A stretch of DNA of 36,725 nt from a virus (Duplodnaviria; Caudoviricetes), in the IMG/VR virus record IMGVR_UViG_3300020248_000004, positions 1 to 36,725 of that record. The stretch is one strand, 5' to 3'. The translations under genes were made by a program, and so were the position numbers. The notes beneath the pieces were generated by a model that saw only the letters and a list, made by a program, of their open reading frames with translations, was not told where the DNA came from and ran no database searches. Below, piece after piece: positions 3,001 to 36,725 of this stretch; positions within the stretch are counted from its first letter, which is position 1, and each line of letters opens with the position of its first letter.

Positions 3001-3372
3001 TTAAGAGACTACTTCTAAAGTTTCAATAAACTTTAATCGTTCACAACCTCTGTATGGATTGTAAATGTCTCCTTTTTTGTAGGCTTCAGACTCTTTGTTT
3101 TGCTTGTCAGCATCAACAAGAGTATATCCATCAAAAGCCCAAGTATTACAGTCAGACATATCATAAATGTTGACTTTGATAACTTGCCAGCCTTTGATAC
3201 CATAGTCACGCTTGGCTTTGCGTACACATCTTGTAGCGTGTACTATGCTTGGATCTTTGCCGATAGACCAAACCCAAGAGCCGTGACTAACTAAAAGAAA
3301 TGCGATTACTTCTTTTTCTTGTTGTGGATACTCAACTTTTTTAGCTGACTTTTTAGTTTTAGTTTTAACCAT
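3001..3372 (-). CDS. Early hypothetical protein, 123 aa
   Basis: ORF with GAACCACA leader motif. Confidence 0.85.
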   Translation of the reverse strand: MVKTKTKKSAKKVEYPQQEKEVIAFLLVSHGSWVWSIGKDPSIVHATRCVRKAKRDYGIKGWQVIKVNIYDMSDCNTWAFDGYTLVDADKQNKESEAYKKGDIYNPYRGCERLKFIETLEVVS

Positions 3373-3414
3373 AATTAATTGTGGTTCTAAGGTTTACAAG
3401 TGAAGGTTTTTGAG

Positions 3415-3456: not shown

Positions 3457-4419
3457 TTACTGTTCACCAATTACAAGATCAGCAGCTTTGACGGCATTTG
3501 AAAATACTTTCATTAGTTGCTGAGATGGTGACTTACTATCTTTGATGTGCTTAGCCCAACTTGATAAGTAAGCTGCGTGATTTTGAGTATTACAAGTAAT
3601 TTGCAACCTATTAGAAATTAAGACGGCTGCAAACTCAGCAGTCATCTCTTCCTGAGGTCTATACTTTCTATACTCATTTAACCATTTTCTGTTAAGCCTA
3701 TCCTTATGACCTGTAGCATGAGCAAACTCATGAGCAAGTGTAGAAAGATAAGCTTCATCATTGGTGAATGATTCTCTCTCTGGCATTACTACTTGGTCAG
3801 TACTGTCCATATAGTAAGCCTGATCTCCCATATGCTGTAAACCATTCTTAAGGTCTTTAGAAAAGATCATTAGACGGTCATGAGCATCTTTGCATCTATC
3901 ACTTAATGGTCTTGTTGACTTTTCGCAATCGACTTTAAAGGATTCAATAATTTTATCTAGCTTGCTTTGTGCTTTTTCATCAAGTCCGACTAAATCAGAG
4001 ATATTAAAAACACTAGCACCTTTGAAGGTTACCTTCATAATAAATTCTTGATTCCCTTCTTTATCTAATTTAGGGCTGCCATCTTCATTCTTAAGGTCTA
4101 TCTTAATAGGATTTGGCCTTAAAATTTTGGCTGCCTTGCTGCCCTTCTTAGGTATGCAATTCAAGTCTTTTTTAGCTTGACCATATCCCACCCATAAAGG
4201 TAATTCTTGACCCCTCAAAGTCTGATACATTTGAAGAATTATAGGATTAGCTCCACTGTAGGCATGACCAGTTAAAAAATTAATATGCCCTTGAGATTGT
4301 GAAGAAGTCCATGGTTTAGACCATACATTGTCTAGTTGCTGATTATCCAATAGCTCCATAAAGTCAGCTAAGATAGCGTCTTCTATTTTTACTGTTGGTT
4401 TTTTTGAAGTGAAAGTCAT
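3457..4419 (-). CDS. ardC: ArdC-like antirestriction protein (ssDNA-binding domain + zincin-like metallopeptidase domain)
   Basis: WSKPW, N..TG..YSG.N, W..Y.QA, KKGSKA, VFN, AYY...D.V.MP..E.F, LAHEFAHATGH..RLNR, EE..AE, NHAAYL.SW. Confidence 0.9.
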   Translation of the reverse strand: MTFTSKKPTVKIEDAILADFMELLDNQQLDNVWSKPWTSSQSQGHINFLTGHAYSGANPIILQMYQTLRGQELPLWVGYGQAKKDLNCIPKKGSKAAKILRPNPIKIDLKNEDGSPKLDKEGNQEFIMKVTFKGASVFNISDLVGLDEKAQSKLDKIIESFKVDCEKSTRPLSDRCKDAHDRLMIFSKDLKNGLQHMGDQAYYMDSTDQVVMPERESFTNDEAYLSTLAHEFAHATGHKDRLNRKWLNEYRKYRPQEEMTAEFAAVLISNRLQITCNTQNHAAYLSSWAKHIKDSKSPSQQLMKVFSNAVKAADLVIGEQ

Positions 4420-4877
4420 TTGTGGTTCTGTGAATTGTGCAGTCGGTTGAACTGCTTGATAATAATATTAATATATATATTACTGTTTTGTTAGGATTGA
4501 TTTATAGATTCTTTGTTATCCCTTAGTATCACTTAAGAAATCCATCTTAACAATTCTGTAACAATACCCCCTCTATCGATAATAAGAAAAGATATACCCC
4601 TATAACCAAAAATTAGCCCAGAATCACCCTAAATAATATAAGATATATTATAAGATCCTAGTTATATCAATGGTTTTGCTTACTAGACTACCTTTTTTTG
4701 TAATTTTTGCGAGGGCTATGGGTAAAATTGCAAAGTATATATACGTATAACCCCTTCAAATTTTTGCTCCTAATTTTTTTTGGGTGTTAATCATGCAGCA
4801 GCAGTCTAAGGGTCCTCTCCCCTAGTGCAATCCTAAGTATATTCTTAGTGTAATCTTAGTGAGTAGATGTTGTTCTT
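4420..4877. other. Non-coding region between terminase and first early gene; probable physical genome ends
   Basis: The only long intergenic region, syntenic with T7 termini, flanked by short imperfect CTTAG/CCTAG-type repeats. Confidence 0.7.
4821..4865. repeat. Four imperfect ~11-bp tandem repeats
   Basis: cctagtgcaat cctaagtatatt cttagtgtaat cttagtgagta. Confidence 0.7.
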
Positions 4878-28725: not shown

Positions 28726-28737
28726 AGTGGTTTTCTT

Positions 28738-30963: not shown

Positions 30964-31158
30964 CTAGTTCTCCAATACTCTGTTAGTTAACATAGTTTCT
31001 TTTTGTCTTAGTTGCTGTTCAATAAGGTAATCAACAACAGACCTCTGCCCTGCACGATACCACACTTCTCGATCTGATAGCGATAGGTCTGGGTGTCTGT
31101 TAGGAAACACAGCATCTAAAGCTTGTATAAGTTCGTCAGTAATTACTGGTAAAGACAC
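30964..31158 (-). CDS. Conserved small podophage protein, 64 aa
   Basis: LI..LD..FP...P....REVWYRAGQRSVV.YL motif. Confidence 0.85.
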   Translation of the reverse strand: MSLPVITDELIQALDAVFPNRHPDLSLSDREVWYRAGQRSVVDYLIEQQLRQKETMLTNRVLEN

Positions 31159-31187: not shown

Positions 31188-31196
31188 TGTTAGTCT
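31188..31196 (+). promoter_or_regulatory. Extended -10 promoter for the candidate antisense sRNA
   Basis: TG-T-TAGTCT. Predicted +1 near A31203, at the base of hairpin 1. Confidence 0.55.
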
Positions 31197-31202
31197 ATAG
31201 AT

Positions 31203-31275
31203 AGCAAGGAGTGGTTACCTTGTTGCAACGCTAAGAAAACCTCAAGGGTGTGGTTCCTCTTGGGGTTTTCTTTAT
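31203..31275 (+). ncRNA. Candidate two-hairpin small RNA with GUGGUU loops
   Basis: Stems 31202-31209/31218-31225 and 31233-31248/31257-31272 pair fully only on the + strand (G-U wobble pairs). Loops are AGUGGUUA and UGUGGUUC, and the 3' end is U-rich. Confidence 0.6.
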
Positions 31276-32006
31276 GGGTTCCAAAGTTTTACTTCACCTG
31301 TATTGTAATCATAATCTCCCTCTCTAAGTATTCTTGTAAGTCTTGCGTTCAAGATAGCATCAGCAATCGTATAACCTTTCTTAGTATATGTCTCCTGTAC
31401 CTTAGACCATAGTGCTTCTTTGGTATCAGGTGTATTGGCTAAAGTCTTTGAAGCAGTAACCATACCCATACCTTTGATACCTAGTATTCCGTCACCTGCA
31501 TCACCAGCCAACGACATCTCAAACCAATGCCTGTCTGCTTTCTTGTTAGTAATATGTTCTATGCAATCATCAGCTATAAGTTTGCAGGGTAGTGTTCTCA
31601 TATCTTTATCAACTGAAACTATTATCGGGTCTTTGTATTTGCCATTGGTAGCAAGCAAACCAAGTACGTCATCTCCTTCTAAATGCTCATAGGCTACAGT
31701 TTCATATACCTCTTTTACTTTTTCTATAACACTTCTAAGTGCAAGTGGTTTGCGTTTACCTATCCTGTTGATCTTGTACTCAGGAAATATCTCATGTCGG
31801 AATGTAGGGTAGGAAGTAAAGCACATAACTATGTCATGCTTACCACTAGCAATACTTCTATAAACATCTAGTCTGTTCTCTATCAGATTAAGTATGTCTC
31901 TTTCATCTGAATGTAATGTATGCTCCCAATCATTCCATCTTGTGTCTTGTTCACAGGCACAGCATGAATTGTAGATCAACCAATCAGCATCAATAAGTAA
32001 AGTCAT
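31272..32006 (-). CDS. gp6: 5'-3' exonuclease (gp6-like)
   Basis: LLIDAD, FR....YK.NR, LEGDDVLG, S.DKD, GD..D...G..G.G. Confidence 0.93.
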   Translation of the reverse strand: MTLLIDADWLIYNSCCACEQDTRWNDWEHTLHSDERDILNLIENRLDVYRSIASGKHDIVMCFTSYPTFRHEIFPEYKINRIGKRKPLALRSVIEKVKEVYETVAYEHLEGDDVLGLLATNGKYKDPIIVSVDKDMRTLPCKLIADDCIEHITNKKADRHWFEMSLAGDAGDGILGIKGMGMVTASKTLANTPDTKEALWSKVQETYTKKGYTIADAILNARLTRILREGDYDYNTGEVKLWNP

Positions 32007-34786: not shown

Positions 34787-36725
34787 TATATATGGTGCTG
34801 TCAACACATCTGTAATGTTATAGTCTCCCATATCTAGTGCTGCTGGTAACTTACTTGTATCACTTAGTTGTTGTGTTGTTTGGTGGTATAGATTATCTAG
34901 ATTGTTGTCGCTATAAATGTTAAAAAAACTTTGCTTTACACATTCAATAAACCTTTGAAGTTCACTAGCTGGACTGCCATAGCAATCATGTATTACACAA
35001 AAGTTTTTTAAGTCATGCTTACTAGCTTCTACTAAACTCATGTGACAATGTGCAGCATCAAGACTATGTATATAATTACTAGGAAAACCCTGTGCCTGTC
35101 TGCGTTTATCAACCTTAGTGGTATCTGGTTCAGCTAGACTAAGCCTGACACTTGAGTTACTTAGTTTAGTCTTCACTCTTTTAACATCATTCTTGTAGTA
35201 GTTCTGTTGAACAAGAAACCCTGATGGTGTATGCCAAGAGATAGGTTTATTCTCTTTGTTGAAACATAAAGCTGTAGTCTGCAAGTACTTCAATACCTCA
35301 TAACTTTCTGGGGTTACATACTTAACTGCCTGTTCAATCATGGTTGCCAAATAAAAATTATTCTTAAAATTTTTTGCGATAAAAACATTTTCATTTACAA
35401 AATATTTTTCTATGTAGTTTGCTATTCCAAATGTAGTTGAGTTATATGGAATCATAAGCACAGGTTTCTTTATAAACTTTCTTGTTAACTTATCTTTCTG
35501 TGCATACCAGATTGCAGCCTGTTCAGACTTGTCATACTTCAGTAGCATCAACAGAACATCAAGGATTTGTTTATATAAATCTTGCGGTTCATTAACATTT
35601 TGTAGGTTAACTTTGTTAGCTAAATGTTGATTAGATATAAGACCTGCTATATGTTGGTAACCATTATTCGTACCATCAAGACAGCAAACATGGTGAGATA
35701 TGAAACCTTTATTTAATCCATAGTCTTGAAACATAGCCCACTCTCTGCACCAAGCCAAGAATTGAAATGGCTCTTTTGCTTTACCCCATATATCAACATT
35801 ACCTATCGGGTCTTTATAAACTTCAAGAGCTAGATCAGTTCCTTCTATGTAAGCCCACTCTAATCTTTCCTCATAGGTATGTTTATTAAGACCCCAATGA
35901 TTAGCACCTGCTATGGCTAACCAATTTAAGTCTTGTTTAGTTTTTATCTCTGCACCTTCATGGAATATATGTAGCCCTCTTGCTATATCATTTCCTTGTG
36001 GGTGGAAGTGTGCAGTAAGTGGGTACATACGACCAGTAAAATCAAATTGATAAACGTGATAAAATTTTTCGCCAATATATCTTTTTGCTGTATCAATCAT
36101 TGATAGTATCTGATACCTCTTGACCATATTCTGATGGTTCATATCATGGATTAAACCAGCTAAATATTTCCATTCTTTTCTTGCTTCCTTATCAGTAGCA
36201 ATATTAATTGGTTTTGTTGGCAGTTCTGCAAGCTCCCTATCTATCAATGAACCAACCTCTATTCGTTCCTCCCAACAGTATTCAAGAGTTTCTAGTACAA
36301 ATTGATTTACACCCCAAGCTGTCTGACTCGCCAGAGTTAACGCTTTCAGACTTGTTGTTAAGTCTTCTCCTCGTAGTGTGTTTAGGTAGTCTTGATTAGA
36401 ACTCTTAATTGCTTTTGTTTTTAGTCTGTCTGTAAAGTAACCACCGCTATCTATTGAAGTCCACTCTCTTGGTACATCAAGACAAGGTAGGTAGATAGGA
36501 AAGGCAGCAATCCTATTTGACCTACCCTGCCTTATATATTTCATAAACCTATCAGTAAAGACAACATAACTTGTAGTTGCTTTGCCTACCTTCTTGTTTA
36601 TCATGTTGACCATATTTATTTTTATCATTATCAACTCAATCAACTTCAGCCCAACCTTAATTTTATTACCCCTTGTCCAAGTCTTAAACTCATGGCCTTT
36701 ACTGTTCATGTGATAGACCATAAGG
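34778..36725 (-). CDS. gp1: T7-like RNA polymerase, C-terminal part
   Basis: DxxGR (DFTGRMY), PQGND, motif A (LDGTNNGYQH), motif B (RKFIKKPVLMIPY), NYIHSLDA, motif C (IHDCYG). Confidence 0.97.
   Translation of the reverse strand, partial: LMVYHMNSKGHEFKTWTRGNKIKVGLKLIELIMIKINMVNMINKKVGKATTSYVVFTDRFMKYIRQGRSNRIAAFPIYLPCLDVPREWTSIDSGGYFTDRLKTKAIKSSNQDYLNTLRGEDLTTSLKALTLASQTAWGVNQFVLETLEYCWEERIEVGSLIDRELAELPTKPINIATDKEARKEWKYLAGLIHDMNHQNMVKRYQILSMIDTAKRYIGEKFYHVYQFDFTGRMYPLTAHFHPQGNDIARGLHIFHEGAEIKTKQDLNWLAIAGANHWGLNKHTYEERLEWAYIEGTDLALEVYKDPIGNVDIWGKAKEPFQFLAWCREWAMFQDYGLNKGFISHHVCCLDGTNNGYQHIAGLISNQHLANKVNLQNVNEPQDLYKQILDVLLMLLKYDKSEQAAIWYAQKDKLTRKFIKKPVLMIPYNSTTFGIANYIEKYFVNENVFIAKNFKNNFYLATMIEQAVKYVTPESYEVLKYLQTTALCFNKENKPISWHTPSGFLVQQNYYKNDVKRVKTKLSNSSVRLSLAEPDTTKVDKRRQAQGFPSNYIHSLDAAHCHMSLVEASKHDLKNFCVIHDCYGSPASELQRFIECVKQSFFNIYSDNNLDNLYHQTTQQLSDTSKLPAALDMGDYNITDVLTAPYIFT
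36627..36725. repeat. End overlap, copy 2
   Basis: Matches 1-99 with one mismatch. Confidence 0.95.

Follow-up and report, generated by a model that had tools for sequence, protein, structure and literature searches.

The window, as we call the whole 36,725-nucleotide stretch of DNA analysed here, is a complete, circularly permuted T7-like phage that carries nearly all of its genes on the minus strand. It has genes for RNA polymerase, SSB, endonuclease, primase/helicase, exonuclease, integrase and ardC, lacks a gene for DNA polymerase, and is a polymerase-less (no DNA polymerase) T7-like Prochlorococcus phage of the MPP-C type. Judged by the exonuclease, its closest cultured relative is Prochlorococcus phage P-SCSP2 (80% identity), a member of the MPP-C clade (PMC9860041). 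The genes that frame the locus are as follows.

1–554, minus: T7-like RNA polymerase, N-terminal part (184 open codons; continues at 36725–34778; phrog_414), without a loop-matching site
547–1389, minus: tyrosine integrase (int), with an 8-nt overlap between its stop and the start of the RNA polymerase (554)
1413–1640, minus: NrdR-like zinc-ribbon ORF just before int (PF22811, E 6e-8), without a target motif
3457–4419, minus: ardC, anti-restriction gene and first early gene (phrog_7245; Pfam ArdcN and MPTase-PolyVal)
30964–31158, minus: conserved 64-aa ORF (phrog_4970), the other boundary of the slot that holds the RNA
31272–32006, minus: T7-like exonuclease (phrog_107), whose stop codon overlaps the U-tract of the RNA

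The junction between int and the RNA polymerase gene (547–554) is gapless, unlike that of P-SSP7 and S-TIP37, so the attachment site must be elsewhere; a search for a tRNA-like attP was negative. In 33 of 36 contigs, the int stop is joined to the polymerase start by overlapping stop and start codons, directly or via small ORFs, and the three exceptions comprise one 17-nt overlap just outside the range tested and two unresolved cases. The RNA polymerase is predicted to be translationally coupled to int, and given this overlap and coupling, silencing int would lower the polymerase as well. Neither the PHROGs comparison of 43 window ORFs nor the Pfam comparison of 21 found an HTH or MarR repressor, and a weak MarR match in the ORF domain scan falls within the integrase. 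The NrdR-like zinc ribbon before int is the sole candidate protein regulator seen among the ORFs scanned; sister-lineage phages have similar CxxC ORFs whether or not they carry an integrase. Elsewhere in the early region, a hairpin at 2943–2995, between two early genes, holds a 14-nt stretch that recurs, as judged by eye, just upstream of the int leader (1399–1413).

The two-hairpin unit on the plus strand

The slot between the exonuclease and the 64-aa ORF holds a compact unit oriented opposite to the phage genes.

31188–31196, plus: extended −10 promoter-like element (TG-T-TAGTCT), TGTTAGTCT; predicted +1 near 31202–31203
31202–31275, plus: predicted ~73-nt small RNA, antisense to phage genes, from fold, conservation and strand bias of pairs
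31202–31225, plus: hairpin 1 (hp1), loop AGUGGUUA, with a near-invariant (A/G)GUGGUU(A/U) at 31210–31217
31233–31272, plus: hairpin 2 (hp2), specificity loop UGUGGUUC at 31249–31256

The sequence-only reading had described two adjacent hairpins whose stems contain four G-U pairs on the plus strand, an extended −10 ahead of them and a U-rich run behind. All of these are present: hp1 and hp2 occupy 31202–31225 and 31233–31272, the four G-U pairs can be read from the sequence when the terminal U-G of hp1 is counted, TGTTAGTCT lies at 31188–31196 with TGnTAnnnT kept before hp1 in relatives, and UUUUCUUUAU follows hp2. The U-tract (31266–31275), with an A-tract on the opposite side of hp2, gives the second hairpin a terminator-like form. 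The GC-rich stem followed by a U-tract is a hallmark of an intrinsic terminator, and a simple terminator scanner left hp2 unlisted; the freely varying loop of such terminators is not seen here, loop 2 being constrained and tracking distant leaders. Hp2 may also terminate transcripts of the exonuclease strand.

Relatives were gathered by scans of viral contigs, genome contigs and metagenome contigs, and the 108 matches of one scan, mostly due to chance, were filtered out. This gave 133 distinct exonuclease loci at an identity of at least 65%, and 124 of them include the whole downstream region. The whole unit, from the extended −10 through both hairpins to the U-tract, is present in all 124 complete regions of the lineage; TGnTAnnnT, picked out by pattern search, precedes hp1 in each. 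Within an alignment of 24 variants, TG, TA and the final T are invariant while the three middle bases vary, which is the pattern of a sigma-70 extended −10 on the plus strand. A covariance model (R1) caught part of hp2 only, and the results do not rest on it.

Folding gives −29.8 kcal/mol on the plus strand (z −3.25) and −22.4 kcal/mol on the minus strand (z −3.5), so the single-sequence z-score, being alike on both, fails to pick the strand. The strand preference comes from variation in the stems, where unique stems hold 55 G-U against 6 A-C on the plus strand (counts that are not independent of one another). The 13 variants of hp1 keep 95.2% of cells paired on the plus strand versus 83.7% on the minus strand; for the 14 variants of hp2 with 8-nt loops, other loop lengths being excluded, the figures are 99.4% and 83.9%. 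Two-sided pair changes occur at five of the eight pairs of hp1 and seven of the twelve of hp2. The stems thus covary and their pairs favour the plus strand, in line with what had been read from the single sequence, and the RNA is, we think with little doubt, made from that strand. Eleven RNA-labelled metatranscriptome runs contain part of the stretch, and seven distinct runs were aligned; all are contigs that were chosen by the stretch itself and carry no strand, ends or usable depth, so that they weigh on neither side.

Outside this lineage the unit disappears. In the main lineage, integrase and unit occur together in all 34 scorable contigs. The cultured phage P-SCSP1u has neither the unit nor the motif nor an integrase, and hp1 was found in none of 80 loci made up of 79 sister-lineage loci and P-SCSP1u. 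Among sister phages, the A, B or C motifs turn up once in 13 early regions, and 4 of the 16 contigs that include an early region have int, which is therefore not dependent on the RNA. No Rfam family matches the unit, the window or five loci of the accessory array described below. Comparison across relatives identifies the unit as a real, conserved phage small-RNA family, and probably a new one. The literature retrieved does not describe it in MPP-C or other T7-like phages, and the main text of the MPP-C paper does not mention antisense, non-coding or repressor; PMC10690425 may catalogue the hairpins as an unnamed candidate.

Predicted early-gene targets and their joint change with loop 2

Six early starts of the window carry sites complementary to the RNA.

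1391–1398, minus: integrase leader, 8-nt complement; the orthologous site was used in the covariation test
2173–2183, minus: leader of early ORF 1762–2172, 11-nt complement, covers the Shine-Dalgarno sequence (SD)
2366–2373, minus: site overlapping the AUG of early ORF 2169–2366, 8-nt complement
2869–2879, minus: leader of early ORF 2581–2865, 11-nt complement, covers the SD
3380–3387, minus: leader of early ORF 3001–3372, 8-nt complement
4421–4428, minus: leader of ardC (anti-restriction gene; ArdC domains), 8-nt complement

The claimed 11/11 complements at 2173 and 2869 were recovered: TGTGGTTCCTC occurs three times in 36.7 kb, at these two leaders and in loop 2. The 8-nt complements claimed at 1391 (int), 2366, 3380 and 4421 (ardC) are likewise all as stated, with the small correction that the site at 2366 overlaps the AUG of a 65-aa ORF (2169–2366). 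It is loop 2 that gives the perfect matches, and for hp1 no covarying target was found among the scaffold, SSB and AACC-AUG leaders examined. The hp1 loop may be a general AACCAC seed. The scaffold gene leader (28727–28732) ends in AACCACT-ATG and may be a target of hp1; this ending is frequent in relatives without being universal.

On the mRNA strand GAACCAC occurs seven times against 1.75 expected: five times at early starts, once in the hairpin and once within a coding region (1995). Ranked by pairing energy with the RNA, including the cost of loop opening, the six named starts take places 1 to 6 among 38 start regions (−15.2 to −9.9 kcal/mol), and the next reaches −8.3 kcal/mol. From ardC to the polymerase, six of nine starts have a site, and two of the other three overlap an upstream stop codon. 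The sites fall within 0–8 nt of the start codon and cover any SD that is present. Many type-A leaders have little Shine-Dalgarno sequence; the target leaders are mostly unstructured.

Loop 2 falls into six types in the 124 regions: A in 74, B in 25, E in 11, C in 8, D in 3 and F in 3. Covariation was assessed in 36 non-redundant contigs that contain both the unit and the integrase start, 35 of them with a readable leader. The class of the int leader equals that of the RNA in 30 of the 35, across 6 kb of sequence and in separate integrase clades; among the exceptions, two pair by wobble, one leader has no motif and two mismatch. Phages with loop A (GUGGUUC) have int leaders with GAACCAC (16), GAGCCAC, which leaves one G-U (2), no motif (1) or the B motif (1). 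Loop B (GUGACUC) is met by GAGUCAC in eight cases and by the E motif in one, loop C by a C leader in one and loop E by GGAGACA in three. In the two type-D contigs, hp1 is longer and supplies the match to the int leader; loop D in hp2 matches eight further leader sites. None of 100,000 label shuffles reached 30 of 35, a significance that kinship among the phages inflates.

The same agreement is seen across the early leaders as a whole. Their motifs total 48 A, 8 C and 4 B in loop A phages, 23 B and no A in loop B phages, 8 D with loop D and 5 E with loop E. By mean duplex energy, loops B to E each pair best with leaders of their own type; loop A does about equally well with leaders of types A, C and D. 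The integrase tree places the B leader in two clades apart from each other, in one of them as the sister of the window's int (100/99), and puts D within the P-SCSP2-like integrases; these placements, judged by eye, imply several joint switches of loop and leader. The exonuclease tree is a quick tree. Two contigs mismatch: L112 has an A loop with B leaders, and L308 a B loop with E leaders. Their integrases are near those of matched contigs, and the two look like mosaics, either natural escape recombinants or assembly chimeras; they show that loop and leader need not always agree.

Type F offered a prediction made before any type-F early region had been seen. Contig L434, of type F, then met it over 8 nt, with UCAGGAGA directly before the int start, and carries a 9-nt match, UCAGGAGAU, at another leader; no A or B motif was found at its starts. 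The int match is shorter than the full predicted AGGAGAUG and is partly anti-SD. Because type E and F seeds consist largely of anti-Shine-Dalgarno sequence, matches by these two types are less unexpected. A further type-A contig, L430, had a matching leader as well.

Loop 2 and the distant leaders thus change together, and the opposite pattern, loops that vary over fixed leaders, was not found. Stem covariation, a conserved promoter element and the joint change of loop and leader all support the trans-acting antisense RNA first proposed from the single sequence, and they amount to strong comparative evidence that the RNA pairs with distant early leaders.

Middle hairpins, accessory arrays and the sister-lineage slot

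An extra hairpin lies between hp1 and hp2 in 15 of the 124 regions. In the P-SCSP2 clade, this middle hairpin complements the ardC leader, which there lacks GAACCAC. The P-SCSP2 match covers 10 nt, the best of 41 starts, at −12.9 kcal/mol; L133 has 13 nt with changes on both sides, and L131 9 nt only. A target search for six other middle hairpins found none. Other middle hairpins (L084, L046, L012, L028, L328, L073 and L077) carry long variable loops in a shared stem.

An accessory array, absent from the window, follows hp2 in 17 of the 124 regions. It opens with a second extended −10 (TGcTATATT) and continues with one to four structured modules of ~50–115 nt in shuffled order, usually with a closing hairpin. 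Examples are listed by contig and position.

L035, 1364–1843: accessory array
L071, 690–1110: accessory array
L009, L034, L046 and others: further arrays

The modules are stem-loop and pseudoknot-like, many contain CUCUG or CCUC, and by eye some of the pseudoknot-like pairings are compensated. A resemblance to ribozymes, xrRNA or type III antitoxins might be supposed, and Rfam, in which no family matches the modules, gives no support to any of these. Among 11,827 start regions of the collected loci, no array target of at least 13 nt was found beyond self or chance, and a blastn search of one array against GenBank phages matched the core unit only. One module type occurs in 21 stretches, and two new contigs that were read are of MPP-C type.

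The sister MPP-C lineage (L215, L326, L340–L419) lacks the core RNA. In most members the slot is occupied by a different antisense promoter, TGTGATAAGGT, followed by variable hairpins and some of the same array modules; in several it is empty. In two (L366 and L367), the closing hairpin is followed by ~170 additional bases that may be a small inserted ORF. Many sister early leaders (L341, L344, L358, L366, L378, L379, L386, L400, L414 and L418) share CCCAG(A/T) ~15–20 nt ahead of the start. The DNA examined yielded no loop complementary to it, and some RNA loops of this lineage resemble the motif in the same sense.

Proposed mechanism and comparison with known systems

We propose that the host RNA polymerase transcribes the unit into an RNA of ~73 nt opposite to the phage genes, and that loop 2 would kiss the unstructured leaders at the ribosome-entry regions of six early genes. 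Pairing at the stretch from SD to AUG normally blocks ribosome entry, and here it would stop early-gene translation. Silencing of int would lower the coupled phage RNA polymerase and, with it, expression of middle and late genes. Where a cell carries the phage already, through infection or transient integration, lysis would be delayed, and an incoming phage of the same loop type would have its first mRNAs (ardC and int-RNA polymerase) silenced; loop types A to F would then be immunity groups. Hfq is absent from most MED4-like hosts (PMC2518516), so in such hosts pairing must work unaided. The confidence we attach to the parts of this model differs: pairing with leaders is very likely the function of the RNA, and repression rather than activation is its likely outcome. 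The reading we favour, with moderate confidence and on the basis of comparative sequence analysis, is that the unit represses early-gene translation through RNA alone, in specificity groups, and serves latency or exclusion. A wider version is speculative and considerably less probable: a modular guide-RNA system that replaces a protein repressor and silences the early regulon together with the polymerase, with guides added upon target escape, loop types as immunity groups, and the array (up to four modules plus closing hairpin) as a repertoire against rival phages or host genes.

What latency or exclusion has to be weighed against is chiefly a lytic timer, with the same pairing and repression shutting off early and RNA polymerase translation during an ordinary infection. 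T7-like phages enter the cell stepwise, and the RNA gene would arrive ~10 kb after the early region; all of the pairing evidence fits a timer equally, and the scan of 43 ORFs named no shut-off gene resembling the gp0.7 kinase, gp2 or lysozyme. Other T7-like cyanophages yielded no stable lysogens according to the sections consulted of PMC8776855, and no prophage was found here, the one match among GTDB genomes being a phage contig in a MAG. A timer does not readily account for the six specificity types, each of which requires concerted change in several leaders. P-SCSP2, which carries the unit, is described as either failing to burst or bursting at anything from ten hours to days (PMC9860041), while P-SCSP1u, with no RNA, motif or int, lyses normally. 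The specificity types and this difference in lysis lead us to favour latency or same-type exclusion as the main role, moderately so, and to regard a timer alone as unlikely. The pairing could instead activate the mRNAs or make them more stable, perhaps as a shield against RNase E; Shine-Dalgarno sequence is scant in many type-A leaders, and a protective role for antisense RNA during infection has been suggested (PMC2518516). Sites within 0–8 nt of the start codon that cover the SD where present, in leaders that mostly have no inhibitory fold to open, make activation improbable.

A different set of explanations gives the work to the other strand or to the DNA. The minus-strand loop is identical to the leader motif and that strand folds too (z −3.5), so the hairpins might titrate a leader-binding protein as a CsrB-like decoy, or be DNA-level sites, and a protein that changed its specificity would also produce covariation. 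The bias of G-U over A-C and the promoter signature both point to the plus strand, the unrelated 10–13-nt ardC guide and the changes in loop length would be hard for one protein to follow, and no candidate RNA-binding protein was found among the ORFs scanned; we give this explanation little credence. Least probable of all is a terminator or RNase III-type processing signal and nothing else. T7 R6.5 is a processing signal at the class II/III boundary, and the unit would stand in its place; with hp2 beginning where the exonuclease stops and T-runs present on both strands, hp2 could plausibly double as a bidirectional terminator. As the sole role it is largely excluded by the loop-leader joint change and by hp1 with its promoter: a terminator leaves hp1, the promoter, the conserved loops and their joint change with leaders 6–10 kb away unexplained, and several sister-lineage phages have no hairpin at the slot.

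Integrase-bearing T7-like cyanophages are reported to lack repressor homologues (PMC8776855), and the relevant passages of PMC9860041 offer no explanation for the erratic lysis of P-SCSP2 beyond its having an integrase. The unit offers a specific candidate for the regulator, with its targets predicted and its specificity types exchanged in nature, and its presence in the cultured P-SCSP2/MED4 pair makes the question directly testable. If the favoured reading is true, multi-target, repressor-free RNA control of an early regulon would extend immunity of the c4/CI type to a clade abundant in the surface ocean.

Other regulators have been proposed for phages with a comparable decision to make. Control of the phage RNA polymerase in a lysis/latency decision was proposed for the MarR-like regulator of LUZ100 (PMC10134795), which as a protein acts on transcription; the window was found to have no gene of this kind, and its int runs directly into the RNA polymerase gene. 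A MarR-type or DNA-binding gene precedes int in P-SSP7, HTVC019P and S-TIP37, annotated as MarR-type in the first two. A de novo test for leaders matched by antisense loops was negative for P-SSP7 and HTVC019P (first 20–22 kb) and for P-SCSP1u, returned two weak coding-region matches in S-TIP37 and was positive for the window, its control. SviR of the PLE satellite is a mobile-element small RNA with several targets in phage conflicts (10.1101/2022.04.08.487710), and differs, by its published description, to which the comparison is confined, in setting a satellite against its helper phage in Vibrio. As for the cyanobacterial Yfr RNAs, the Yfr1 motif ACUCCUCACAC, as given in the portion of PMC2518516 consulted, is absent from the unit, which has no Rfam match.

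Three phage RNAs come closer. P22 sar has a single target, ant, which it overlaps on the opposite strand; the unit lies in an intergenic slot, overlaps no target start and is trans-encoded, multi-target and of covarying types. The likeness is in length (~70 nt), in blocking translation initiation and in a tie to lysogeny (PMC12197685). P4 CI is an RNA rather than a protein that acts as immunity factor and shuts lytic genes, is processed from its target transcript and terminates transcription through the adjacent seqA/seqC (PMC4825925). In contrast, the unit is on the opposite strand, far off and aimed at start codons, with perfect complements at distant starts only and no Rfam match. The c4 RNA of P1 and P7 is encoded in its target icd-ant operon, from which it is processed, and folds as a cloverleaf. 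It controls one antirepressor mRNA beside a protein repressor, whereas the unit has its own promoter on the opposite strand, tandem hairpins, six early starts 6–10 kb off and no repressor protein found in its genome. No Rfam family, C4 included, matched at gathering score, the best chance matches being at E ~6 locally and to snoRNA models window-wide. What c4 shares is its working principle, loop-displayed sequences that pair near the ribosome-binding site, block translation and set heteroimmunity (PMC12197685): loops complementary to target sites at the ribosome-binding site are found here computationally, and the six loop/leader types would fit heteroimmunity. By these comparisons, the unit departs from these families in the defining features tested, and it would work like P1/P7 c4 and, as a candidate for RNA-only immunity, like P4 CI.
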